The translations under genes were made by a program, and so were the position numbers. DNA of 64,000 nt from Candidatus Krumholzibacteriia bacterium (GTDB taxonomy: Bacteria; Krumholzibacteriota; Krumholzibacteriia; JAJRXK01), in contig JBGPIA010000010.1 in the NCBI GenBank assembly GCA_041484665.1, positions 104,421 through 168,420 of the forward strand, read 5' to 3'. This document shows, piece after piece, positions 25,724 to 43,338 of this stretch. Position 1 is the first letter of the stretch; every line of letters starts with the position of its first letter. The notes under the pieces are model-generated. The model worked only from the letters and a program-made list of their open reading frames with translations, had not been told where the DNA came from and searched no databases.

Positions 25724-26200
25724 TCATACCCGCGCCGAGTACAGCGCCGGGCGCGCCTTGAGCATGCCGCTCAGCCGGCCGCGGGCCCGGCGCAGCGCGG
25801 ACCGATCGCGCACCGCGACGAAGACCGTATCGTCGCCGGCCAGCGTCCCCACCACCTCGGGCCAGGCCAGCCGGTCCAGCGCCACGGCCACGCGATTGGC
25901 CTCGCCGGGCGGAGTGCGCAGCACCAGCAGGATGTCGCCCGCGGCATCCACGGTCAGGACGCCCTCCAGGATCCGCAGGCGGTCGGGATCGACGTCGGCC
26001 GCCGCGGCCGCAGTCGTCCGTCGGTAGACGCCGTCGACCTTCACCAGCTTCAGCACCGCGATGTCGCGGCTGATGGTCGATTGCGTTGGGTGCCATCCCT
26101 CTGCGGCCAGGGCGTCGGCGAGGTCTTGCTGCGTGCGCAGCTCGCGGGCGCTGACCAGCTCGAGGAGCTTGAGCTGCCGCCGGTGACGCTGCGCGCTCAT
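25724..26200 (-). CDS. argR: Arginine repressor
   Basis: TQQDL, TQSTISRDI, LRTPPGEA, VGTLAGDDTVFV; ATGA overlap with argH. Confidence 0.93.
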   Translation of the reverse strand: MSAQRHRRQLKLLELVSARELRTQQDLADALAAEGWHPTQSTISRDIAVLKLVKVDGVYRRTTAAAAADVDPDRLRILEGVLTVDAAGDILLVLRTPPGEANRVAVALDRLAWPEVVGTLAGDDTVFVAVRDRSALRRARGRLSGMLKARPALYSARV

Positions 26201-27834
26201 GCTCTGCGCCGTGCCGGGATCCTGCGGCGCGCCCCGCGGCGGGCGCCCTTGCGGACGCGAGTGCGCACGCTGTCGCGCATGCTGCCGCGCATGCTGCTGC
26301 GCACGCCCTTGCGGACGCGGCTGCGCGCTGCGTTGTGCGCGCGGCCGCTCGCGCCTCGGCCCGCCAAACGCCCCAGAGCGCCGTCGAAGCGGCGCCGCTC
26401 GCTCGCAGACCATCGCCGGCAGGCGCGCAGGCGAGCGCGGACCGCCGGCAGCCCGAGATTCCCCGCGCCTCCGAGGCCGGCCCGGCGGCGCAGCAGGGCG
26501 GCGTGCGTCGCGCGCGTCGCAGCTGCGGCGCGTACGGCGCGCCCGCCCGGCATGGCGCGCGTGGCGGGTGCGCCCGCAGGCGGCGAATCCTCGGCCCCAG
26601 CGCTGGCGGCCGCCTGCGTCCGTAGCGCGGCGGCGACCTCCCGGTAGGCGGCCCGGAATGGCCGCCCTTGCTCGACGCGGCGGAGCACCTCGTCGGTCGC
26701 CAGCACGCCGCCCGAGACGGCCGCCGCGCAGCGCGCGCGATCGACTTCCAGGCGCGGGAGCACGGCCGTGACCATGGCCAGCATCTGCCCGGTGCGGTCC
26801 AGCCCGCGCAGGAGTGGCTCCTTGAGCAGCTGGAAGTCGCGGTGGTAGCCGCTGGGGAGCTTGCCAGCGATGTGCAGCACCGCGACCAAGTCGGCCTCCA
26901 CAGCGGCAGCCCGCCCGCGCGTCAGCTCGAACAGATCGGGGTTGCGCTTGTGGGGCATGATGCTGCTGCCCGTGGCCAGCGCGGCGGGCAAGCGCAGGTA
27001 GCCGTACTCCTCGGCGCTGAACAGGATCACGTCGCAGGAGAGCTTGCCCAGCTCGCGGGCGAGCTCCGCGCACCACAGCAGGACGGCGGCCTCCAGCTTG
27101 CCGCGTCCGGCCTGCACCGCTGCCACGTTGTGCTCCACACGGGCGAAACCGAGCGCCCGCGCGGCGATCTCGCGCCGCAGCGGCAGCGGCACGCCGTACC
27201 CGGCGGCGCTGCCCAGCGGGCAGCGGTCCAGGCGCTGCCACACGGCGTTAAGGCTCTCCATGGTGTCGAGCAGGCCTTCGGCGTATGCCGCAGCCCACAA
27301 CCCCAACGTCGAGGGCATGGCGCGGCGCTGGTGGGTGTAGCCGGGCCAGAGCACCGTGCGATGCCGGGCAGAAAAGCGCACCAGCTCCGCCACGAGCTGC
27401 GCGGACTGGTCGTGCAACCGCAGCAGCGTATCCTTCAGATAGAGGCGCAGATCGCAGGCGATCTGATCGTTGCGCGAGCGGGCCGTGTGCAGGCGCTCAC
27501 CCGCATCACGCCAGCGGCGGGTGAGCCAGGTCTCCACGCCCGTGTGGACGTCCTCGCTGCCGGGGTCGACGCGCAGCGTCCCGCGCTCCGCCGCACGCAG
27601 CGCGGCCCGCAACCCGGCGCGCAGCCGCCGCGCCTGTGCCGGCGTGATCAGCCGGCTGCCCGCCAGACCTTCGACGTGGCCAAGGCTGCCCAGCACGTCC
27701 CAGCGCAACAGCCGCGCGTCCCACGCGCGGTCCTCGCCCGCGGTGTAGTCGAGCATCTGGCGGTCGAGCGCCTCGCCGGCGGACCACAGCGTCGTTGTCG
27801 GTGCGCGTTTGCGGTGCGTGCGCTGCGCGCTCAT
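26197..27834 (-). CDS. argH: Argininosuccinate lyase with Arg-rich C-terminal extension
   Basis: EDVH, HTARSRNDQ, PGYTHQ, TGSSIMPHKRNPD, GYHRDFQ. Confidence 0.93.
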   Translation of the reverse strand: MSAQRTHRKRAPTTTLWSAGEALDRQMLDYTAGEDRAWDARLLRWDVLGSLGHVEGLAGSRLITPAQARRLRAGLRAALRAAERGTLRVDPGSEDVHTGVETWLTRRWRDAGERLHTARSRNDQIACDLRLYLKDTLLRLHDQSAQLVAELVRFSARHRTVLWPGYTHQRRAMPSTLGLWAAAYAEGLLDTMESLNAVWQRLDRCPLGSAAGYGVPLPLRREIAARALGFARVEHNVAAVQAGRGKLEAAVLLWCAELARELGKLSCDVILFSAEEYGYLRLPAALATGSSIMPHKRNPDLFELTRGRAAAVEADLVAVLHIAGKLPSGYHRDFQLLKEPLLRGLDRTGQMLAMVTAVLPRLEVDRARCAAAVSGGVLATDEVLRRVEQGRPFRAAYREVAAALRTQAAASAGAEDSPPAGAPATRAMPGGRAVRAAAATRATHAALLRRRAGLGGAGNLGLPAVRARLRACRRWSASERRRFDGALGRLAGRGASGRAHNAARSRVRKGVRSSMRGSMRDSVRTRVRKGARRGARRRIPARRRA

Positions 27835-28907
27835 GCCAGGTACTCCGTGGCCAGCGCGGCGTAGAAGGCCCGCGCCTGCGCCACCTCGGACAGCTCGACC
27901 CACTCGTCGGGTGTGTGCGAGCGGGCGCTCGCGCCCGGGCCGCACTTGAACGCGTCGCAGTGGCGTAGGAACACCCAATCGGAGCAGGTCGGGCTGCCGA
28001 ACGTCCGCGCCGCCGGCAGCACGCGCCGCGCCGCAGCCAAGAGCCGCGAGCCCTGCGGTGTCTCGCATGGCACGAGCCGGTCGGAGGTCACCACTACCTC
28101 GCTGCGCAGGCGCGCGCGCAGGCGCTGGGCCAGCTCGGCGTGGCTCCAGGCCGGCGTGCTGCGCACGTCCAGCACGGCACTGGCCGAAGGCGGCGTGACG
28201 TTGCGCCCGACTCCGCCGGACAGCATGGTCGGAGCCGCGCTGGGATGCCCCAGCACGGGATGGGGCCGGTCCCTGAACAGCTCCGGCAGCTCGAGCAGGT
28301 CGCGGGCGAGCACCAGGGCGGCGTTCACGCAGCCCCCGTCCTCATCGGCGCGCCCGGCGTGGCGCTGGTCGCCGCGCGCCCGCAGCTCCACCATCATGAG
28401 TCCGCGCTGCGCCACGGCCAGCTGCAGGCTGGTGGGCTCGCCGATCACCGCGGCGTCGATCGGCCCCGCGGCGGCCACGGCCTGCGGCATCGTCGTGTCT
28501 CGCGTCTCCTCGCCGTAGCCCAGCAGCACCAGCAGCCTGCCCGTGCGCGGGCCACCGGCGCGGGCCACGTCGCGCGCCGCCAGCAGCATGGCCGTCACGG
28601 CGGCCTTGGCGTCGACGGCGCCGCGGCCGTACAGACGCTCCCCCTCGACGTGCGGCGCGAACGGATCGCGCGACCAGCCTTCGCCGGGCGGCACGACATC
28701 CAGGTGCGAGACCAAGGCGAGTGCTTTGCCCGCGCCCCGCCCGCGCAGCTCGATCGTGACGCCGGCCGCGTCGCGGCGGACGTCCAGGCCGAAGTCGCGC
28801 GCGGTCTGCTCGACCCGGCGCGCCACGGCCTCCTCCTCCCCGCTCACCGAGGGGACCGCCACCAGCTCCGCCAGCAGCTCGGTCTCAACCGGAGATGTCG
28901 CCGCCAA
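27831..28907 (-). CDS. argE: M20 family deacylase (ArgE-like; N-acyl-citrulline/ornithine deacylase)
   Basis: SHLDVVP, GRGAVDAK, GEE, IGEPT, SHTPDE; located in the arg operon. Confidence 0.8.
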   Translation of the reverse strand: MAATSPVETELLAELVAVPSVSGEEEAVARRVEQTARDFGLDVRRDAAGVTIELRGRGAGKALALVSHLDVVPPGEGWSRDPFAPHVEGERLYGRGAVDAKAAVTAMLLAARDVARAGGPRTGRLLVLLGYGEETRDTTMPQAVAAAGPIDAAVIGEPTSLQLAVAQRGLMMVELRARGDQRHAGRADEDGGCVNAALVLARDLLELPELFRDRPHPVLGHPSAAPTMLSGGVGRNVTPPSASAVLDVRSTPAWSHAELAQRLRARLRSEVVVTSDRLVPCETPQGSRLLAAARRVLPAARTFGSPTCSDWVFLRHCDAFKCGPGASARSHTPDEWVELSEVAQARAFYAALATEYLA

Positions 28908-29820
28908 GATAGGCCGCCTTCTCCTTGCGCCCGACGATCATGGTGCCGCAGCCCGCGCCGGTGAAGACCTCCAGCAGGAGCGCGTCGGGAACGCGTCCGT
29001 CAATGATGTGGGTCCGCTCGACGCCGCCGGTCGCCGCCCGGATACAGGCCTCGACCTTGGGGCGCATGCCGCCGGCCAGTGCTCCGCTCCCCATGAGCTG
29101 CGCCAGGTCGTCGGGATCGGCGAAGGCCACCAGCGTTGCAGGATCGGTGCGGTCGCGCAGCACGCCGGGCGCGCCGGTGAGGAAAACCAGCTTGGTGGCC
29201 CGCAGCGCCACCGCCAACGCCTCCGCCACCGTGTCGGCATTGACATTGAACACGTGGCCCTCGTTGTCGGCGGCGAGGCTGGCGACCACCGGCACGAAAC
29301 GTGCCTCCAAGAGCGTCAGCAGCAGCTGCGGATCCACGCGCTCGATGTCGCCCACGTGGCCAAAATCCACTGCGATGCGCTCGCCGTCGTCACCCATGAC
29401 GGTCACGAGCGGGCGGCGATGGGCGGTGATCAGCTCGCCGTCCACCCCGCTCACGCCCACCGCGTGGACCTGATGCGCGCGCAGCGCCGCCAGCAGGTCC
29501 ACGTTGAGCGTGCCGGCGTAGACCATCTTGGCGACGGCCAGAGCGTCGTCATCGGTGATGCGGCGGCCGGCGATCAGGCGTGGCTCGACGCCCATGCGCC
29601 TGCTGAGAGCCGTCGCCTGCGGGCCGCCACCGTGCACGACCACCAGGCGGATGCCCAGGCTGGCGAGCAGGGCGATCTGCGCGCAGACCTGCTCCATGAC
29701 CTCCGTCTCGGCCAGCACCTCGCCGCCCACCTTCACGACGAAGATCTTGTCGCGGTACGCGCGCACGTAGCGCAGCGCGCCCTTGAGCCCGGGCACGCCG
29801 CGGCTGCTGTCGATCGTCAC
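28885..29820 (-). CDS. argB: N-acylglutamate kinase
   Basis: VVKVGG, VHGGGPQ, GRRITD, NVNADTVA, GGMRPKV. Confidence 0.92.
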   Translation of the reverse strand: MTIDSSRGVPGLKGALRYVRAYRDKIFVVKVGGEVLAETEVMEQVCAQIALLASLGIRLVVVHGGGPQATALSRRMGVEPRLIAGRRITDDDALAVAKMVYAGTLNVDLLAALRAHQVHAVGVSGVDGELITAHRRPLVTVMGDDGERIAVDFGHVGDIERVDPQLLLTLLEARFVPVVASLAADNEGHVFNVNADTVAEALAVALRATKLVFLTGAPGVLRDRTDPATLVAFADPDDLAQLMGSGALAGGMRPKVEACIRAATGGVERTHIIDGRVPDALLLEVFTGAGCGTMIVGRKEKAAYLGGDISG

Positions 29821-29827
29821 GAGTCCG

Positions 29828-30898
29828 TCACTCCTTTCGCGCCGCCGGGCCGCCGGCGCCCTCCAGCGCCGCCAGCGTGCGCGTCGCCGGGTTGCCGGCC
29901 AAGGTCAGCAGCAGCGCGCGCTGGGCGTGCAGTCGGTTCTCTGCCTGATCGACCACCGCGCTGCAGGGGCCGTCGAGCACCTCGTCATCGATCTCTACGT
30001 TGCGGCGCACGGGCAGGCAATGCAGGACGCTGGCGCGGCCATCGCGCGTGGTACGCAGGCGGCTCGCCGTCAGGCGCCAGCCGCGCAACGAAGCCTTCTG
30101 GGCCGCCTCCGCGTCCGGGCGGCCGAAGCAGGCGAGCGAGCCCCATGCCTTGGGATAGACCGCATCGGCGCCTTGCAGGGCGGCCTCGGGGTCGGCGGTC
30201 ACGGCGAGCCCGCCACCGTGCGCCTCGGCCACGCGGCGGATGAGATCGGTGTCGCTGGGATCGAGGTCGAAGCCCTCGGGCCGCGCGATCACGACCTCCA
30301 TCCCCAGGCGCGCCGCGGCCAGCGCGGCGCTGGCCGGCACCGCCGTGGGCAGCGACTTGGGGTGCCACGTCCACAGCAGCACGAAGCGCCGCCCGCGCGT
30401 GCTGCCGAGCTTCTCGCGCAAGGTCATGGCATCGGCAAGCGCCTGGCAGGGATGGCGGCGCGCCGATTCCAGGTTGATCACCGGCTTCTCGCAGTGGCGG
30501 GCGAAGCTGCGCACGATGGCGTCGCGGCGGGCCGTCGCCCAGTCGCCGCCGCGGGGGAAACTGCGCACGCCGAGCACATCGGCGTAGCGCCCGAGCACCC
30601 GCGCGGCCTCGACGATGTGCTCGACGGTGGCGCCGTCCATCATGGCGTTGGGCTCGGTCTCGAGCGCCCAGCTTCCGTTGCCCGGCTCCAACACGATCGC
30701 GTGGCCGCCGTGCAGGAACATGGCCGCCTCGAAGCTGGCGCGCGTGCGCAGCGAGGGGTCCATGAACACCAGCGCCATCACCTTGCGCTCGAGGCCGCCC
30801 TGCACCTCGCCGCGCTTGACGCGCGCTGCCAGAGAGAGCAACGACTCGATCTCCTCGTCGCGCCAGTCCTCCAGCGCCAGGAAATCGCGTTTGGTCAT
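29828..30898 (-). CDS. argF: N-acyl-ornithine carbamoyltransferase (ArgF' class, AOTCase/SOTCase)
   Basis: PSLRTR, HPCQ, WTWHPKSLP (ArgF'-specific loop), HCLPVRRN, AENRLH. Confidence 0.9.
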   Translation of the reverse strand: MTKRDFLALEDWRDEEIESLLSLAARVKRGEVQGGLERKVMALVFMDPSLRTRASFEAAMFLHGGHAIVLEPGNGSWALETEPNAMMDGATVEHIVEAARVLGRYADVLGVRSFPRGGDWATARRDAIVRSFARHCEKPVINLESARRHPCQALADAMTLREKLGSTRGRRFVLLWTWHPKSLPTAVPASAALAAARLGMEVVIARPEGFDLDPSDTDLIRRVAEAHGGGLAVTADPEAALQGADAVYPKAWGSLACFGRPDAEAAQKASLRGWRLTASRLRTTRDGRASVLHCLPVRRNVEIDDEVLDGPCSAVVDQAENRLHAQRALLLTLAGNPATRTLAALEGAGGPAARKE

Positions 30899-30914
30899 GG
30901 CGGGCCTCCAACGG

Positions 30915-31937
30915 TCAGCACGGGAACATCCCTGCGGCGCGCAGCCCTTCGCCTTCGGGGAGGCCCAGCGCGAGGTTCATGGCCTGCACGGCCTGCCCGC
31001 CTGCGCCCTTCACGAGGTTGTCGATGGCAACCATCACCTGCACCTCCGCGCCATCGCCGGTGGCCGCCGCGTGCAGCAGCGCGACGTTGGTGCCGACGGC
31101 GTGGGTGAGCTCGGGCGGCTGATCCAGCACGCGCACGAACGGGCGGTCCTCGTAGGCGCGGCGGTACAACGCGACGGGATCGCCGCCTGGCTTGAGGCGC
31201 GCGTGCAGCGTCAGATGGATTCCACGCACGAACGGCCCAGAATGAGCCAGCAGCCGCGCCGTGGCTGCGGCACGGCCGGTCCACGCGCGCCATTGCTGGA
31301 GGATCTCCGCCTCGTGGCGGTGGCCCAAGACCGAGTAGGCGAAGATGTTGTGCGCGCGCGTGGGGTGATGCGTGGTGGTCTTGGGCGTGGCTCCCGATCC
31401 GCTGCTACCGGTGATGCCGAACAGCGCGGGCTCTCCCAGCAGCGGCGCCTTGGCCAAGGGGAAGAGCGCCAGCAGCGCAGCGGTGGCGAAGCAGCCCGGG
31501 GCGGCGATCGCGCGGGCGCCGCGCAGCCGCTCGCCCGCAACATCGGCCAGCCCATAGGTGAAGCGCGGCACGAGCTGCGGGCAGGTGTGCTGGCCGTAGA
31601 AGCGCTCGTAGAGGCCCAGGTCCTGTACGCGGAAGTCGGCGGCCAGGTCCACGACCAGCCCCGGCGCGGCGGCGAGCACCTCCGCCGCCAGACGCGAGGA
31701 CTCACCGTGCTCCAGCGCCAGAAACACGACGTCCTGACCGGCCGCTGCCTGGGCCGGCGACGCGCCGGTGAAGCAGGCGTCGGTCAGTGCGGCCAGCCCG
31801 GGGTGGACCGTGGCCAGCGGCCGCCCTGCCTGGCTGCGACTGGTCGCGACGCACTCGGTCACCCGCGGGTGTGAGAGCAGCAGTCGTAACAGCTCGCCCC
31901 CGGCGTACCCGGCGGCGCCGATCACCGTGGCCTTCAC
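30915..31937 (-). CDS. argC: N-acyl-gamma-glutamyl-phosphate reductase
   Basis: GAAGYAGGEL, DLAADFR, PGCFAT, GSSGSG, IDNLVKGAGGQAVQ; GTGA overlap with the upstream gene. Confidence 0.92.
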   Translation of the reverse strand: MKATVIGAAGYAGGELLRLLLSHPRVTECVATSRSQAGRPLATVHPGLAALTDACFTGASPAQAAAGQDVVFLALEHGESSRLAAEVLAAAPGLVVDLAADFRVQDLGLYERFYGQHTCPQLVPRFTYGLADVAGERLRGARAIAAPGCFATAALLALFPLAKAPLLGEPALFGITGSSGSGATPKTTTHHPTRAHNIFAYSVLGHRHEAEILQQWRAWTGRAAATARLLAHSGPFVRGIHLTLHARLKPGGDPVALYRRAYEDRPFVRVLDQPPELTHAVGTNVALLHAAATGDGAEVQVMVAIDNLVKGAGGQAVQAMNLALGLPEGEGLRAAGMFPC

Positions 31938-33061
31938 GAGGTCGCCTCCAGCGTGCCCCCGGGGTCCGCGGAGCTGTGCGCCGGCGCGGCGCCCCCGGTG
32001 TAGGCCGCGAGCGCCGCGAGCACCACGTGCACCAGCCTCGCGGGCTCGCGCCGCGCGTTGCACGCGGGCAGGCCGAGCTCGGCGCGGACGTAATCGCGGC
32101 CAACCTCGTTGTCGGTGGCCGGGCCGGTCATCACGGTAACCGGCAGGCCGAACCGGCCGCGGTAGATCTGCAGGGCGCCCCAGCAACCCACCGGATCGGG
32201 GGCCGCCAGCACGTGCGCGGCGCCCAGCGCCATCAGCGACGGATCCAGCAAGATGTCCTGGACGCCGTACTCGCCGAGAATCCCGTCACCCAGCTCGGCG
32301 ACGATGGCGTCGGGGCGGCGGCTGCTGACTGCGGCGAGCCGGTTGAGGATGCCCTTGGCCAGCGGCACGGTCATCCCGGCGTGGGTACTGGGCGCGCCGG
32401 CATCATTGAAGGTGAGTGCCTCGACCGCTCCGGCATCCAGCATCGACAGCGTGTCCCGCATGAGCGAGACGCCCGTGAGCTTGCACGCCGCCACGCGCAG
32501 ACCGGCGCGCGTGAGGCCGCGCACGAGCTCGGTGGCAGCCACGGTCTTGCCGGCGTTCATGCAGGTGCCCGCCACGTAGACCACCGGCACCGTGCAGTCC
32601 AGCACCTCCGCGGGCGGCACGGCGTGGTCGGCGATCGTCGCGGGCCGTCCGATTCGATCGCTCAAGTCGGGGAAGGCGAGGATCGCCCCCAGGACCTCGG
32701 CGCGAAACGGCGAGCCCAGCTCCGCGCTGGCGGACGTGCAGCGGCCCAGGATCCCGCCCAGATTGAGCACGTCGAGCACGTCGCCCACGGCGATATGGGA
32801 GGGGACCTCGCCGGCGTAGCCGCGCAGCGCGCGCCGGCTGCCCAACGTCCCGGCCAGCACGTCGCCCGCGCGCAGCGAGACCATCCGGCCCGACAGATCC
32901 TCCACCGTGTTGTAGGTGGACTTGTCCTCGAGGATGCGCACGGCGAGCACGTAGCCCGCGGCGGCGTTGATCTCGTCCCCCACGATCACCTCGCGGGTCA
33001 GGCGCGCGTTGCGCGTCGAGGAGGAGATGCGGTCCAGCCGCAGGCGCGTCGTGGTCAGCAT
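31934..33061 (-). CDS. DUF1611-like P-loop protein of unknown function embedded in the arg operon
   Basis: GTCMNAGKT P-loop, ACKLTG...RD, FNDAG.PST, VAELGDG; overlaps the argG stop and the argC start. Confidence 0.8.
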   Translation of the reverse strand: MLTTTRLRLDRISSSTRNARLTREVIVGDEINAAAGYVLAVRILEDKSTYNTVEDLSGRMVSLRAGDVLAGTLGSRRALRGYAGEVPSHIAVGDVLDVLNLGGILGRCTSASAELGSPFRAEVLGAILAFPDLSDRIGRPATIADHAVPPAEVLDCTVPVVYVAGTCMNAGKTVAATELVRGLTRAGLRVAACKLTGVSLMRDTLSMLDAGAVEALTFNDAGAPSTHAGMTVPLAKGILNRLAAVSSRRPDAIVAELGDGILGEYGVQDILLDPSLMALGAAHVLAAPDPVGCWGALQIYRGRFGLPVTVMTGPATDNEVGRDYVRAELGLPACNARREPARLVHVVLAALAAYTGGAAPAHSSADPGGTLEATS

Positions 33062-34296
33062 GGACGTCCTTCCGCGGCGCGCGCGGCCAACAGCGACGGG
33101 ATCGCGGCGACGCGGGCGAAGGCGCGCGCTTCCGCGCCGGTCCACAGCCGGTTCTCTTCCCCGTAAGTGGCCACCGCGGGATCCATCATGGAGTGCGGAC
33201 TGCGCACGCCGACCACCTGGAAGCGGCCGGGCGACAGCCGTACGCGCGTCTCGCCGGTGACGCGCGCCTGGGAGCTCTCGATCAGCGCCTCGATGTCGCG
33301 CAGCGCCGGGTCGAAATACTGCCCCTCGTGCAGCCGGTCGCCGTAGAAGCGGCCGAGCTGCTCCTTCCAGAAAACCTGCCAGCGCGTGAGCACGAGCTTC
33401 TCCAGCTCGCGGTGCGCCGCGATCAGCAGCACCGCCGCGCCCGCCGCGAACCCGATGCGCCCCTTGATGCCCAGCGCGGTCTCGCCCAGGTGGATCCCCC
33501 GGCCCACGCCGTAGGCATCGGCCAGCTCACCCAGCGCCTCGACCAGCGCGGGGCCCGTGAGTGGCGCGCTGTCCAGCGCCACGGGCAGCCCTCGCTCCCA
33601 GCGCAGGTGGATCTCCCGCGGCGGCGGAGCGTCGGCCGGCGGATCGAGCAGCTCCGGCGGCGGGCCAGCCCAGGGATCGTGCGTCCAGCCTCCGCCCCAA
33701 GTCGTCCCCCACAGGCCGCGGTTGATGGAGTAGGCAGCGGCCTTCTGCGGCACCGGCAGCCCGCGCGCCTGCAGCTCGGCGATCGCCTGCTCGCGGCGCA
33801 CTCCGGCATCGCGGATGGGCGTGAGGATCTGCAGGTCCGGCGCCAGCACCCGCAGCGCGACGTCGAACCGGATCTGGTCGTTGCCGGCTCCGGTGGAGCC
33901 ATGGGCGACGGCGCTCGCGCCGATCTCCCGCGCGACGGCGACCACCGAGAGGGCCTGCTGGGTGCGCTCGGCGGCGACGGACAGCGGGTAGACCTCGCCG
34001 CGCAGCACGTTGCCCTGGATGAGGAAGCGGACGAAGCGGTCGTACACCGCCGCGCGGGCATCGACCTGGTGGTGCTCGCGCGCACCGACCGCCAGCGCTT
34101 GGCGGCGGATGGCGTCGCGGTCGCTGGCGCCGCTGCCGCCCGTGTCGACGTAGACGGTGTGGACAGCCCACCCGGCCTCGGCCAGGCGGGGCACGCAGTA
34201 GGAGGTGTCCAGGCCGCCCGAGAACGCCAGGGCCACCTTGGGTGGCTCCGCCGGGCGGGGGGCGGCGCCGTCGTGGGTTTCGGATGGATTCTGCAT
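33055..34296 (-). CDS. argG: Argininosuccinate synthase
   Basis: LAFSGGLDTS, YPLSV, HGSTGAGNDQIRF, GIKGR. Confidence 0.93.
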   Translation of the reverse strand: MQNPSETHDGAAPRPAEPPKVALAFSGGLDTSYCVPRLAEAGWAVHTVYVDTGGSGASDRDAIRRQALAVGAREHHQVDARAAVYDRFVRFLIQGNVLRGEVYPLSVAAERTQQALSVVAVAREIGASAVAHGSTGAGNDQIRFDVALRVLAPDLQILTPIRDAGVRREQAIAELQARGLPVPQKAAAYSINRGLWGTTWGGGWTHDPWAGPPPELLDPPADAPPPREIHLRWERGLPVALDSAPLTGPALVEALGELADAYGVGRGIHLGETALGIKGRIGFAAGAAVLLIAAHRELEKLVLTRWQVFWKEQLGRFYGDRLHEGQYFDPALRDIEALIESSQARVTGETRVRLSPGRFQVVGVRSPHSMMDPAVATYGEENRLWTGAEARAFARVAAIPSLLAARAAEGRPC

Positions 34297-34314
34297 GATG
34301 CATAGTTATGCAAG
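34297..34314. promoter_or_regulatory. ARG box (ArgR operator)
   Basis: Palindrome TGCATA-GT-TATGCA at 34299-34312, immediately upstream of argG in an argR-containing operon. Confidence 0.75.
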
Positions 34315-34372: not shown

Positions 34373-35080
34373 TCAGCCGGCCTGCGCCGCCGCGCGCACG
34401 AACGCCGTCACCAGAGGGTGCGCGCGTCCTTGCAACGCTGCGCGCTCGGGCTGGAAGAGCGTCGCAACGAAGAAGGGATGCCCGTCCAGCTCGACGGCCC
34501 GCGTCTCGCCCACCGCGTCGACCGCGGCCACCCGCAGCGGCCCTGCGTCGAACCAGGCAGCGTAGCGCGGATCGAGCCCGAAGCTGCAATGGTAGCCCTC
34601 GACGGCCTCGGCGCAGCCGTAGATCGCGCGCAGGCGCGAGCGGTCGCGCAACCGGATCCGCCCCGTCTGCTCCACGAGCGGGCAGGCCAGCGGCGTGATC
34701 AAGGCCACTGCCGCGCCAGGGTTGGACTCGGCGTGATCAGCTTGCGCGTGGCACAGCACGTTGCGGGCGAACTCGATCATTGCGTGCTGGAAGCCGCCGC
34801 AAGTGCCCAGGAACGGGCGCGGCTCCTCGCGGGCGAAGCGGATCGCGCGCAGTGCCCCGTCGAAGCTGGCGTAGGGGGTGGCCGGAACGCACCACAGTCC
34901 GGCATAGGAGGCGAGCTGCCGGCCAGCGTCGGTCCCGATCGTCGCGGTCCCGACCCAATCGGCCTCGACGGTGCACCCCGCCTGTTCCGCCGACAGCTCC
35001 AGCGCCCGCGGGATGGCCTGGTGGGCGAGGACCTGCGGATCGTGGTCACCGATGAGGGCGATGCGGAGGGTGGCGGGCAT
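34373..35080 (-). CDS. Stand-alone CTP-synthase-like class I glutamine amidotransferase domain
   Basis: IALIGD, PFLGTCGGFQHA, YHCSFG, HPFFVATLFQPE; no synthetase domain. Confidence 0.82.
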   Translation of the reverse strand: MPATLRIALIGDHDPQVLAHQAIPRALELSAEQAGCTVEADWVGTATIGTDAGRQLASYAGLWCVPATPYASFDGALRAIRFAREEPRPFLGTCGGFQHAMIEFARNVLCHAQADHAESNPGAAVALITPLACPLVEQTGRIRLRDRSRLRAIYGCAEAVEGYHCSFGLDPRYAAWFDAGPLRVAAVDAVGETRAVELDGHPFFVATLFQPERAALQGRAHPLVTAFVRAAAQAG

Positions 35081-35331
35081 CGTGGACCGTCTTGCGGGCG
35101 GGGGTTGTCGCCGCCGCGCGAGCGCGCCGGCGCGCGGCGTCGTGCGCAACGGAGCCGGGTGCAACGCAGCCGGGCGCGGCGGCGAGCGGCGCGGCCAGTG
35201 TACAAGATCGGGGGGAAACTGGCCCGTTCTTGCGTCTTACTCCAGGGAGGCGGCCACGCGCGCCGGCACGTCGCCGCCCGGCGGGAGCTCGTCCCGCCCG
35301 ATTCCAGGGGTCCAGGCACAAGGAGGCGCTC

Positions 35332-40224: not shown

Positions 40225-43200
40225 CTATTCGATCACGATCTCGTCGACGAAGATGAACGCGCTATCCCCGTGCCCCGGATGCCAGTCTGGGATGCGGCCG
40301 TAGTTGCGAGCGAAGACGCGCACGTAGCGGGCCTCGGCGCCCTGCAGCTCGGCGACGATCTCGCGGACCACGACGCCATACTCGCGATCGGAGACGCCGC
40401 TGGTCAGCCGCGCGACCTCCCGGAAGGCATGCCGGTCCCGCGAGACCGCCACAACGACCTCCGCCGGCATCCAGATCCACGAACGCACGTCCTGCAGGAA
40501 GCTGGCGCCGACGCGCCGCAGCGGCCGGACGCGGCCGAGATCGACCGTCGCATCGAAGTCGGTGTCCTGATAGCCCTGCCAGCCGCCCGTGCGCCAGTCG
40601 CTGGCGCCATGCAGGCCGTCGATGAGCGCCTGCGGTCCGCCGGCGGTGTATTGGGCGTTGGGCACGCTGAGCACCTCGATCGCCCAGTCGTTGGGGATGC
40701 GGTGGAAGCGCGACGTGACGACCGGGCTCGTCCGGCTGTCGGATGCAGAGGCTGCCTCGCCGGGCTCGGCGAAGAACGAGATCGTAGCGCTGTCGCGCAG
40801 CACCAGCGGCTGCCGGAACTGCTCCCACTCGCCCCGCGGTGGCGGGGGCGCCGGCGTGGCCCCGGCTGCCAGCTGAAACCGGATGCGCGCTGCCGGGTCG
40901 GCGCAGCGCAGCTCCACGCGCAAGCTGTCCCGGAAGACGTCCCCTTCCGCCTGAGCCCAGGGTGCCGCAACGATGCGTTCGCCCTGCAGCGCGGAGTGAG
41001 GGCGATCCTGCGGGTCGTGGCCCCACCGCTCATTGGGACGCGGCCCAAGGGTCAGGACCAGCTTTCCGCCGGCCATGATCTCGTCGTGACGCAAGTAGCA
41101 GCGCGTCAGTGTGTGGCCGTTGAGCTGCCCCCCCTGAACGTAGATCGCGCGCCCGGCAGCGCCGCTGGCGCCTGCATCCGCGGCGCCACTGGCGCGTGCA
41201 GGTCCGCGCGTCTCGATCACGAAGCGCCGGCCGCCGTCCAGGTAAAGCGTCACCTTGTCGAACTCCGGAAGGCCCAGTGCGTACTCCCCCGACCCCGGGC
41301 ACACGGGGTAGAGCCCCATCGCGCTCAGCACGTACCACGCCGACATCTGACCGCAATCCTCGTTGCCGGCCAGGCCGTCCGGTGCGTCAGCGTACAACGT
41401 GTCCAGGATCTGGCGGACGCGCTCCACGCTCTTCCACGGCATGCCTGCATAGTGATACAGCCACGCCATGTGGTGGCTGGGCTCGTTGCCATGGGCGTAC
41501 TGGCCGATCAGCCCCGTGATGTCGGCCTGCTCGCGGCCGGTCGTCTGGCTCTGCGCCGTGAACAGCGCGTCCAGCTTCTCCACGAATGCCTGCTCACCGC
41601 CCATCGCCTCCATCAGCCCCGCAATGTCGTGCGGCACGAAGAAGCCGTACTGCCAGGCGTTGGCCTCGGTGTAGTTGTTGTCGACGCGGCGCGGATCAAA
41701 GGGCTCCGCCCAGCGTCCGTTGTGGCGCGCGCGCATGAAGCTGGTCTGCGGATCGAGCAGATGCCGCCAGGCCTGGCTGCGCCGCGTGAACTCGGCGGCG
41801 ACGTCGCCGCGGCCCACCGCGCCCGCCATCTGTGCGATGCACCAATCGTCGTAGGCGTACTCGAGGGTCTTGCTGACCGACTCCGCCTCGCGCTCGGAGG
41901 GGACGAAGCCCTGCTGCTGGTAGGCGTCCAGGCCCCGCTCCGGCAGCGTCGCGCTGTGGACCATCGCGTCGAGCGCGAGGCCTGCATCGAATCCCCGGAT
42001 GCCCTTGAGCCACGCATCGGCAATGACCGACACGGAGTGGTAGCCGATCATGCAGTCGGTCTCGTTGGCCGCTAGCTCCCACACCGGCAGCCGTCCACGC
42101 TGCTGGTACTGCGCCAGGAACGTCTGGACGATCTCGCTCGTGCGCTGCGGTTCCAGAATCGTCAAGAGCGGGTGCAAGGCCCGAAACGTATCCCACAGCG
42201 AGAACACCGTGTATTGGCGGCGCCCCTGCGCGCTGTGGATGTGCAGGTCCATGCCGCGGTAGCGTCCGTCCACGTCGGAGAACACGTTGGGCGCCAGCAG
42301 GCAGTGGTACAGCGCCGTGGTGAAGATCGTCCGCTGCCGCGACGTGCCACCCTCGATCTCGACCCGCGAGAGTGCCTGGTCCCAGCGCTGCCGCGCGGCG
42401 CGCCGCACCGCTCTGAAATCCCAGCCGGGCAGCTCGGCGTCGAGGTTGCGCCGCGCGCCGTCGATGTCGACAGCCGAAATTCCCACTTTGACCAGGATCT
42501 CGCCACCGCGGTCGCCGAACGAGAGAACCCCCTTGACGCTCGTGCCGGAGCCCTCGCCCAAGCCCTCGCGAAGCGTATCGTTGACTGCGACCCGCGCCTG
42601 CTGGAACGGCCTCGAGAAGCGCGCTACGAAGTAGACGACCTGGTCGCGCGCCCAGGAGCTGGAACGGCGAAAGCCCTCGAGCTCGCGATCTCCGACCACG
42701 CGCAGCGAGGAGCCGAGCACCGGGTCGCGGTGCGTCAGGTCGACGATCACATGGGCGTCGCGGCCGCGCCGGAATCGGTAGCGATGCAGGCCGGCGCGCT
42801 CGGTGGCCGTCAGCTCGACGCCGATGCCAGAGTCCTCCAGCTCCACGGCATACCAGCCGGGCTCGGCGCGCTCGCTCCGTTTGGAGAAGCGCGAGCCGTA
42901 GCCCCCGCCAGGTGCGCCGCCGGCGCCAGCGGCCAGCCGGGGCGCGCCGGTGACCGGCATGAAGAGGATGTCGCAGTAATCGGGAACGCCCGTCCCGCTC
43001 AGGTGCGTGTGCGAGAAGCCGTAGATGACATCGTCACTGTAATGGTAGCCGGAGCAGCCGTCCCAGCCTTCCAGGCGCGTGTCCGGGCTGAGCTGGACCA
43101 TGCCGAACGGCAGGCTCGCGCCGGGGAACGTATGGCCGTGGCCCCCGGTGCCGATGAACGGGTTTACGGAGCGGGCAGGATCGTCGTTGGCGTACGCCAC

Positions 43201-43338
43201 GGTCGCGCCGGTGAGAGCCGACGTGCCTGCGAGAAGCGCCGTGCCGATGAGAAGCGAGACGCGGGTCAGGTAATGCGGCGTTACGCTGCCACGCCGCCGC
43301 CGTGCACCGCCCTGACGCGCATCAGCGGCGAGCGCCAC
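40225..43338 (-). CDS. GH92 alpha-1,2-mannosidase family, secreted, with C-terminal accessory domains
   Basis: VNPFIGTGGHGHTFPGA..PFGMVQLSPDT, FSHTHLSGTG, SLWDTFRA, YAHGNEPSHH, GNEDCGQMSAW; start uncertain. Confidence 0.9.
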   Translation of the reverse strand: MALAADARQGGARRRRGSVTPHYLTRVSLLIGTALLAGTSALTGATVAYANDDPARSVNPFIGTGGHGHTFPGASLPFGMVQLSPDTRLEGWDGCSGYHYSDDVIYGFSHTHLSGTGVPDYCDILFMPVTGAPRLAAGAGGAPGGGYGSRFSKRSERAEPGWYAVELEDSGIGVELTATERAGLHRYRFRRGRDAHVIVDLTHRDPVLGSSLRVVGDRELEGFRRSSSWARDQVVYFVARFSRPFQQARVAVNDTLREGLGEGSGTSVKGVLSFGDRGGEILVKVGISAVDIDGARRNLDAELPGWDFRAVRRAARQRWDQALSRVEIEGGTSRQRTIFTTALYHCLLAPNVFSDVDGRYRGMDLHIHSAQGRRQYTVFSLWDTFRALHPLLTILEPQRTSEIVQTFLAQYQQRGRLPVWELAANETDCMIGYHSVSVIADAWLKGIRGFDAGLALDAMVHSATLPERGLDAYQQQGFVPSEREAESVSKTLEYAYDDWCIAQMAGAVGRGDVAAEFTRRSQAWRHLLDPQTSFMRARHNGRWAEPFDPRRVDNNYTEANAWQYGFFVPHDIAGLMEAMGGEQAFVEKLDALFTAQSQTTGREQADITGLIGQYAHGNEPSHHMAWLYHYAGMPWKSVERVRQILDTLYADAPDGLAGNEDCGQMSAWYVLSAMGLYPVCPGSGEYALGLPEFDKVTLYLDGGRRFVIETRGPARASGAADAGASGAAGRAIYVQGGQLNGHTLTRCYLRHDEIMAGGKLVLTLGPRPNERWGHDPQDRPHSALQGERIVAAPWAQAEGDVFRDSLRVELRCADPAARIRFQLAAGATPAPPPPRGEWEQFRQPLVLRDSATISFFAEPGEAASASDSRTSPVVTSRFHRIPNDWAIEVLSVPNAQYTAGGPQALIDGLHGASDWRTGGWQGYQDTDFDATVDLGRVRPLRRVGASFLQDVRSWIWMPAEVVVAVSRDRHAFREVARLTSGVSDREYGVVVREIVAELQGAEARYVRVFARNYGRIPDWHPGHGDSAFIFVDEIVIE

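Follow-up and report, generated by a model that had tools for sequence, protein, structure and literature searches.

Candidatus Krumholzibacteriia bacterium carries, on a 64,000-nt stretch of contig JBGPIA010000010.1 (positions 104,421 to 168,420 of the contig, assembly GCA_041484665.1; referred to as the window), an arginine operon in which none of the known genes for the first step, the N-acylation of glutamate, could be recognized, and in which a gene for a P-loop protein (gene X, Table 1) is located between argG and argC. The locus raises the question whether X supplies this missing step, as proposed in an earlier annotation of the DNA letters (the sequence-only reading), and by which chemistry. 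Based on the analysis presented here, X is most likely the first enzyme of the arginine pathway. The proposal had been put forward as a novel one, which did not hold: the same role is already predicted in a supplementary text for the homolog ACG33_RS14135 of Steroidobacter, described there as an alternative N-succinylglutamate synthase (GapMind 2026, PMC13759103, S1B Text). X is a further member of this already predicted family, and since the role is in print, the locus supports the prediction rather than representing a discovery.

The arginine operon and its missing first step

The operon consists of argG, X, argC, argF', argB, a gene for an M20 deacylase, argH and argR and is tightly coupled, as the sequence-only reading had stated. 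The reading frame of X shares 7 nt with the argG stop and 4 nt with the argC start, and the intergenic gaps do not exceed 16 nt, so that no space is left for lysW, another small carrier or a GNAT gene. In agreement with the earlier annotation, family scans of the operon revealed neither argA nor argJ, no GNAT gene and no lysW or lysX. No GNAT, DUF619 or ArgJ domain was found on X itself by Pfam and NCBIfam, and the same scans showed no GNAT or DUF619 domain fused to ArgB. The three motifs reported for X were all located, GTCMNAGKT at residues 165-173, KLTG at 194-197 and ELGDG at 256-260. The earlier inventory was correct for the genes listed, but the absence of argD, besides that of the first-step gene, had not been mentioned, and the gene listed as argE encodes an M20 deacylase which matches TIGR01910 with an E-value of 8e-40, yet below the cut-off, and which remains under every ArgE cut-off.

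An argA or argJ gene elsewhere in the host genome (93.65% complete, 0.47% contaminated), named beforehand as an observation that would speak against X, could not be found. In the whole genome, neither ArgJ (PF01960) nor the DUF619 domain (PF04768) was detected, no TIGR01890 match (classical ArgA) exceeded the cut-off, and the short-ArgA models reached at best 28 and 31 bits, compared to cut-offs of 180 and 154. The GNAT scored by both of these models is located on contig C1 with no arg gene nearby, and a search of the genome with the GNAT at the head of a Bacteroidota arg operon as query gave no match at E < 0.5. The carbamoyl-phosphate supply was considered as the gap in the pathway and rejected, as carB is present.

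In 60 of 66 scorable related operons, the space between argC and argF'/argB is taken by an ArgD-type gene, and the gap genes scanned at this spot in relatives were ArgD-like in 7 of 7 cases. The argD-less junction of the window operon is found at 30898-30915. The nearest argD matches of the genome are class III aminotransferases with only 32-33% identity, of which G000:C15:95937-97193 (33%) and C2:511925-513055 (32%) are possible stand-ins for ArgD.

The ARG box described ahead of the operon could be confirmed as an ARG-box-like palindrome. Apart from this palindrome upstream of argG, no site in the window matches the ARG-box consensus with one mismatch or fewer; at three mismatches, the 20 sites in the window are at chance level (18.7 expected). 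With at most two changes, the same palindrome precedes 63 of 73 related operons that have sufficient flanking sequence; a control on coding regions, which is GC-richer and hence imperfect, gave 1 of 73. A second ARG-box-like site with two mismatches (41446-41459) lies within the minus-strand open reading frame (ORF) 40225-43338 and probably occurs by chance.

Conservation of X in arginine operons and exclusion of ArgJ

In total, 2,622 homologs of X were found among 8,000 scored candidates, and the search of a 50%-representative library resulted in 1,438 matches. The named top matches belong to Gemmatimonadales/Gemmatimonadota (73-81%). The counts of related loci given here cover the best 80 of at least 594 confirmed genome relatives, i.e., the closest ones. 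All 80 loci touch an arg gene; X immediately precedes argC in 79 of them and follows argG in 74. According to their titles, the hosts are Gemmatimonadota, Myxococcota, Acidobacteriota, Elusimicrobiota, Planctomycetota and Alphaproteobacteria. The conserved arg linkage, which the sequence-only reading had asked for, is thus present, and it is accompanied by a mutual exclusion of X and ArgJ. In 50 of the 80 genomes searched for this purpose, ArgJ was found once, and there in pieces. Of 121 evenly sampled Gemmatimonadota genomes, 37 carry X, 43 carry ArgJ and none carries both (about 13 expected if independent). X is present in 37 of the 97 argC-positive and in none of the 24 argC-negative genomes, and 42 of the 43 genomes with ArgJ also carry ArgC. 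One of the 37 X-bearing genomes (G223) is unpublished; without it, the count is 36 of 120 and the pattern is unchanged. The gap in the host genome, the linkage and the ArgJ exclusion support the prediction that X is a non-orthologous replacement of the first enzyme.

Among the argC-positive Gemmatimonadota, 18 have neither X nor ArgJ, and 10 of these were examined. Four (L102-L105) have a common cluster layout, with LysX confirmed upstream in one of them (L102), one (L108) has a GNAT after argD, and for five no first-step candidate was found among the ORFs examined. The clusters of L102-L105 contain an unexplained gene of 215-223 amino acids (aa) between argC and argB, with a weak GATase_4 match in two of the four. 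In Fulvitalea, a GNAT occupies the slot of X before argC-argD-argF'-argB.

A natural-looking fusion of X and ArgB was found in P0234 (626 aa). It is regarded as weak evidence, because it forms a single-member cluster and lacks around 48 N-terminal residues, and because no second full-length fusion was found among 48 P0234 matches at E ≤ 1e-60. A further candidate, P0232 (X and an ArgC-like part), was rejected as a frameshift-ridden read-through. In the ESM Atlas, the clusters of the X family are either unnamed or labeled "DUF1611 domain-containing" only.

Fold and active-site residues of X

The AlphaFold model of X (predicted local distance difference test, pLDDT, 94.9) consists of a beta-rich N-terminal domain (residues 1-152) and a P-loop domain. 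The description of X as DUF1611-like holds for the fold and not for the family. Structural alignment with VIA-align, mostly over residues 153-358, resulted in the DUF1611 proteins 2g0t (Z 17.5, root mean square deviation (rmsd) 2.8, 181 residues aligned) and 2obn (Z 16.4, rmsd 2.8, 186 aligned), followed by ApbC (Z 15.9), BioD (15.5-15.6; 1a82 15.5), CTP synthase (15.4), DgcN 7xrj (Z 15.3, rmsd 3.1, 184 aligned, 14% identity) and formyl-tetrahydrofolate (THF) synthetase (13.1). Foldseek returned signal recognition particle (SRP) GTPases, BioD, HypB, MeaB and 2obn with E-values of around 1e-6 to 1e-5. The fold of the C-terminal P-loop domain of DUF1611/DgcN is present in X, as is the likeness to dethiobiotin synthetase folds. 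By family cut-offs, X is not a member of DUF1611, DgcN or BioD: with PF07755 (DUF1611) it scores 20.8 bits over residues 156-213 only, below the gathering score of 25, and at E ≤ 0.01 there is no match to NF041892 (DgcN, cut-off 480 bits) or to TIGR00347 (bioD, cut-off 83.3 bits). Across the X family, 24 of 73 members match PF07755 at E ≤ 0.01, the best with 1.3e-5. The sequence of X alone had no match to solved structures at E ≤ 1, and the family profile matched P-loop segments of BioD, FtsY/SRP and MobB only, with no DUF1611 or DgcN chain among them.

For the N-terminal domain, no chain with Z ≥ 5 was found among 48,161 solved chains (best 3.5, LexA/UmuD-type), which neither implies a novel fold nor on its own rules out a known family, and no Pfam match was found on residues 1-155. 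The N-terminal domain of DUF1611 proteins is a separate, Rossmann-like Pfam domain. S14, E54 and R76 of the X domain are conserved in 69-71 of 73 members and may bind glutamate.

The alignment of the X family to 16 BioD sequences using hhalign (probability 95.5) covers 166 columns and pairs K172/T173, K194, D203 and E256 of X with the P-loop Lys-Thr, the Lys after strand 2, the Asp and the EG motif of BioD. In BioD, this set of residues serves Mg-ATP binding and acyl-phosphate formation. In the 73 members of the X family, K172 and K194 are invariant, T173 is found in 72 (Ser in one), D203 in 71 (Glu in two) and E256 in 72. The corresponding active-site residues reported for BioD are Lys15, Thr16, Lys37, Asp49/54 and Glu108/115 (PMC9932657). 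With DUF1611, hhalign covers 87 columns, with four template sequences only and thus as the weak side of the comparison; an xTG motif after strand 2 is common to both. All four sampled DUF1611 proteins carry GKRT and lack a Lys where X has K194. Judging from its conserved residues, X is read as holding an intact Mg-NTP site. Literature searches on DUF1611, on DgcN and on the residues of BioD revealed nothing relevant to X.

ArgF' and the acyl group

In the alignment to the Xanthomonas N-acetylornithine carbamoyltransferase (AOTCase), residue 92 of the window ArgF' is Val; V is also present in 3l06, the top match of this ArgF' in the PDB, whereas 3m5c has E at this position. In 62 related ArgF' proteins, this position is V in 55, A in four and I, T and P in one each, and E was not found. 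According to the parts of PMC13759103 that deal with this position, citing Shi et al. 2007, and to PMC7311316, A/P/S/V at position 92 leads to specificity for N-succinylornithine; 90% of 70 ArgF' proteins neighboring the Steroidobacter-type enzyme are stated to have one of these residues (PMC13759103). From Val92 we infer that the product of X is N-succinyl- and not N-acetyl-L-glutamate, which makes N-succinyl-L-glutamate the most likely product here.

X operons without argF' were observed as well (L093-L097, i.e., G211, G227, G290, G245 and G293, as well as L068 and L071; X 46-59%), with the layouts argR-X-argC-argD-argB or X-argC-argD-argB-argE.

Proposed pathway and alternative explanations

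In the proposed linear pathway on N-succinylated intermediates, X would form N-succinyl-L-glutamate, which would be phosphorylated by ArgB and reduced by ArgC. The ArgC product would be aminated by an aminotransferase encoded outside the operon and carbamoylated by ArgF', after which the M20 enzyme would take off the succinyl group, ArgG and ArgH would complete arginine and ArgR would control the operon. With regard to its chemistry, X would activate succinate in an ATP/Mg-dependent manner as an acyl-phosphate and then attach it to the alpha-amino group of L-glutamate, in the manner of the BioD, CobQ and formyl-THF synthetase class. Such an ATP-dependent succinate:L-glutamate ligase is tentatively and slightly preferred over a coenzyme A (CoA) transferase, because X keeps the BioD residues for Mg-ATP and phosphoryl transfer, which are missing in the four DUF1611 proteins sampled. 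More tentative still is the combined picture of X as a CoA-independent, ATP-driven P-loop amidoligase of the BioD class, whose N-terminal domain has an unsolved fold and which moves between phyla together with its operon.

In the same first-step role, X could also be a DgcN-like succinyl-CoA:L-glutamate N-succinyltransferase, the reading implied by GapMind 2026, in which the P-loop would bind the CoA phosphates and acidic residues would position the amine of glutamate. This is a serious, if rather doubtful, alternative. It is favored by the top folds 2g0t and 2obn and by the DgcN fold, by the weak PF07755 match and the shared xTG motif, and by the use of acetyl-CoA by the known N-acetylglutamate synthases described in PMC4490483, whereas the intact GKT Walker A and the near-invariant K194, D203 and E256, compared to GKRT and no K194 in DUF1611, as well as the longer hhalign alignment with BioD (166 columns vs. 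87 from the weak, four-template side), argue for the ligase. Formation of N-acetyl-glutamate by X as the first enzyme is very unlikely: the NCBIfam name of the ArgF' family is N-acetylornithine carbamoyltransferase, DgcN acetylates and the five ArgF'-less X genomes could use acetyl, but the window ArgF' has Val92, no Glu occurs in the 62 relatives, and NCBI applies the "acetyl" name to the Bacteroidota ArgF' too. An accessory function, in which X would be a nucleoside triphosphatase (NTPase) or regulator (a MobB-like adaptor, a metallochaperone of the M20 enzyme or an activator of ArgB or ArgC) and an unrecognized GNAT would acylate glutamate, is unlikely. The MobB matches within the family and the SIMIBI NTPases HypB, UreG, ApbC and MeaB crowding the fold list would suit it, and the lone X-ArgB fusion P0234 is as compatible with a kinase partner as with a first enzyme. 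Against it stand the co-occurrence of X and ArgJ in none of the 121 genomes, though ArgC is present in nearly all ArgJ genomes, the retention of X in loci without an M20 gene (L093-L097) and the GNAT in the X slot of Fulvitalea. Replacement of the aminotransferase ArgD by X, suggested by the lack of argD in the operon and the low identity of the best argD match in the genome, is effectively refuted by the co-occurrence of X and argD in 60 of 66 scorable related operons, and the fold of X is that of a P-loop and not of a pyridoxal phosphate protein.

Several observations weigh against X as a succinate:L-glutamate ligase in the first step. The nearest folds are those of DUF1611, within around 2 Z units of BioD, and the characterized member of DUF1611, DgcN, is named an N-acetyltransferase. 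A Lys/Asp/Glu set similar to that of BioD is found in MobB, which is not a ligase, and the MobB model PF03205 matches 31 of 73 X members. Five of five X genomes tested without ArgF' carry a canonical ornithine carbamoyltransferase (OTC); the acyl group is therefore not set by ArgF' in these genomes, in conflict with a universal succinyl reading, and as the OTC is of the canonical type only, X also serves a route in which deacylation precedes carbamoylation. The linkage is drawn from the 80 closest loci out of at least 594, and more distant homologs (25-38% identity) are encoded in non-arg surroundings. The Fisher p-values for the exclusion of X and ArgJ are tiny but overstated, because related genomes are not independent. 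With GNATs encoded in the genome and a completeness of 93.65%, an unrecognized acyltransferase or an unassembled gene may exist elsewhere in it. In literature coverage from which subscription papers are largely absent, neither a biochemical or genetic test of the X family nor a proposal of an ATP-dependent mechanism for it was found.

If the first-step role is true, X fills the gap at the first step of arginine synthesis in many Gemmatimonadota and other soil bacteria which are otherwise scored as gapped or auxotrophic. An ATP-dependent ligase using the free acid would, if true, be a new entry to arginine synthesis, distinct from the GNAT ArgA, from ArgJ and from LysW/LysX, and its activity could be missed by acyl-CoA-only assays or by complementation of an Escherichia coli argA mutant alone.

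Origin of the operon

Within the host phylum (128 genomes), a close X was found solely in this genome; three other genomes of the phylum have homologs with 31-34% identity in non-arg contexts. Two relatives of the host family (G017, G018) carry an argB-argD-argC-argJ cluster with 39% identity in argC, and the operon genes of the window share median identities of 61-78% with Gemmatimonadales loci. In a quick tree of X, ArgC and ArgB with 36 rows, 35 of them from the 80 related loci, the window groups with 18 Gemmatimonadota at an SH-aLRT of 90 (enclosing set 99). Synteny with the related loci was not seen past the operon on the argR side. Contamination during binning is unlikely, because contig C10 has a G + C content of 0.699 compared to 0.695 in the genome and an ordinary tetranucleotide profile. 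The operon (25724-34312) was thus likely transferred from a Gemmatimonadota-like donor.

Annotated features and further observations

Table 1. Features of the arginine operon and of X, with window coordinates and supporting evidence
Feature	Position	Strand	Evidence or remark
Gene X, predicted non-GNAT N-succinyl-L-glutamate synthase (alternative ArgA family)	31934-33061	minus	375 aa
X N-terminal beta-rich domain, residues 1-152	32606-33061	minus	AlphaFold pLDDT 95.8
X C-terminal P-loop domain, residues ~153-358	31988-32605	minus	K172, T173, K194, D203, E256, G258
argG, argininosuccinate synthase	33055-34296	minus	TIGR00032 270 bits (cut-off 268); Pfam N and C domains
argC, N-acyl-glutamyl-phosphate reductase	30915-31937	minus	TIGR01850 326 bits (cut-off 234)
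argF', N-acylornithine carbamoyltransferase, Val92	29828-30898	minus	NF003384 404 bits (cut-off 288); Xanthomonas AOTCase alignment
argB, N-acylglutamate kinase	28885-29820	minus	TIGR00761 227 bits; sole Pfam domain AA_kinase
M20 deacylase, probable N-acylcitrulline hydrolase (ArgE role)	27831-28907	minus	Peptidase_M20 and M20_dimer
argH, argininosuccinate lyase	26197-27834	minus	TIGR00838 288 bits (cut-off 280)
argR, arginine repressor	25724-26200	minus	PF01316 and PF02863 (both Arg-repressor Pfam domains)
ARG-box-like palindrome	34299-34312	minus	2 nt upstream of the argG start

ArgH (545 aa) has a long low-complexity Ala/Arg-rich C-terminal tail (26197-26570), and its family match stops near residue 410. 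On the same strand, 76 nt upstream of argG, a glutamine amidotransferase related to the C-terminal part of CTP synthase is encoded (34373-35164, minus strand; NF004836 over cut-off). The first kilobase of the argG-side flank matches just 3 of the 80 related loci. Furthermore, the genome encodes a canonical OTC-like protein with a WxSMG loop (G000:C2:141735-142643) and a third carbamoyltransferase with a YgeW-like motif (C1:904229-905284).

The distant X homologs in L098, L099, L101, L144 and L145 adjoin PGA_cap and an ABC transporter, HlyD and a seven-transmembrane/ATP-grasp fusion, or an alpha/beta hydrolase and an ABC transporter. Some of these homologs carry the NCBI label DUF1611. A homolog with 25% identity is located on a Priestia megaterium plasmid (L143:5974-7035), in a cluster with a gene of the phosphoenolpyruvate mutase family, thiamine-dependent enzymes, two ATP-grasp ligases, an OTC and an M20 peptidase. 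This cluster looks like a phosphonopeptide cluster, and its context hints that the wider X family acylates or ligates amino acids.

Comparison with known systems

The closest known system is that of ACG33_RS14135. As stated in the sections of PMC13759103 devoted to this enzyme, it has homologs in 109 genera, which are almost without exception encoded in arg operons and in no case co-occur with a Pseudomonas-type ArgA, and it has a weak Foldseek match to 7XRJ. Orthologs are delimited there by a bit-score ratio of at least 25-30% to ACG33_RS14135. The supplement contains a plasmid map (pALF12) of the cloned Steroidobacter gene; in the paper, the enzyme is listed only as predicted, and its table row has "no" where confirmed enzymes have "yes" (PMC13759103). 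By eye, the pALF12 product (357 aa) has the motifs GTCMxAGKT, KxTGVSLxRD, ELGDG and TGPATDN in the order of X and closely resembles P0131, a protein sharing 47% identity with X across 344 residues; X therefore belongs to the ACG33_RS14135 family. The two share the operon context, the absence of a classical ArgA from the genome, the argument from position 92 of ArgF' (Val in the window) and a remote resemblance to 7XRJ. They differ in that the window operon has an M20 deacylase, which is lacking in Steroidobacter, and no argD. The published case, as laid out in these sections, refers to exclusion of the Pseudomonas-type ArgA only and argues from the likeness to an acetyltransferase (PMC13759103). 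The exclusion of ArgJ, the BioD-type set of Mg-ATP residues, the occurrence of X without ArgF' and the N-terminal domain without a solved-fold match go beyond it.

With DgcN (7XRJ; NF041892) and DUF1611 (PF07755; 2G0T, 2OBN), X shares the P-loop fold (Z 15.3-17.5) and probably the N-acylation of glutamate. The identity to X is only 12-17%, and X has an intact GKT, the invariant K194 and the beta-rich N-terminal domain. The dgcN gene is paired with dgcA in a catabolic D-glutamate pathway, in contrast to the biosynthetic arg operon of X, in which argG and argC are the neighbors and no dgcA epimerase gene is adjacent. BioD, together with the amidoligases CTP synthase, CobQ/CobB and formyl-THF synthetase, resembles X in the fold and in the aligned Lys-Thr, Lys, Asp and Glu-x-Gly; X differs from it by the additional N-terminal domain of 150 residues, the lack of a bioD family match and the arg-operon context. 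The succinylated pathway of the Bacteroidota (BT3761 type), as far as described in PMC7311316, has a succinyl-type ArgF' as well, and its first enzyme occupies the same slot before argC in Fulvitalea, but that enzyme is a GNAT, whereas X is an unrelated P-loop protein.

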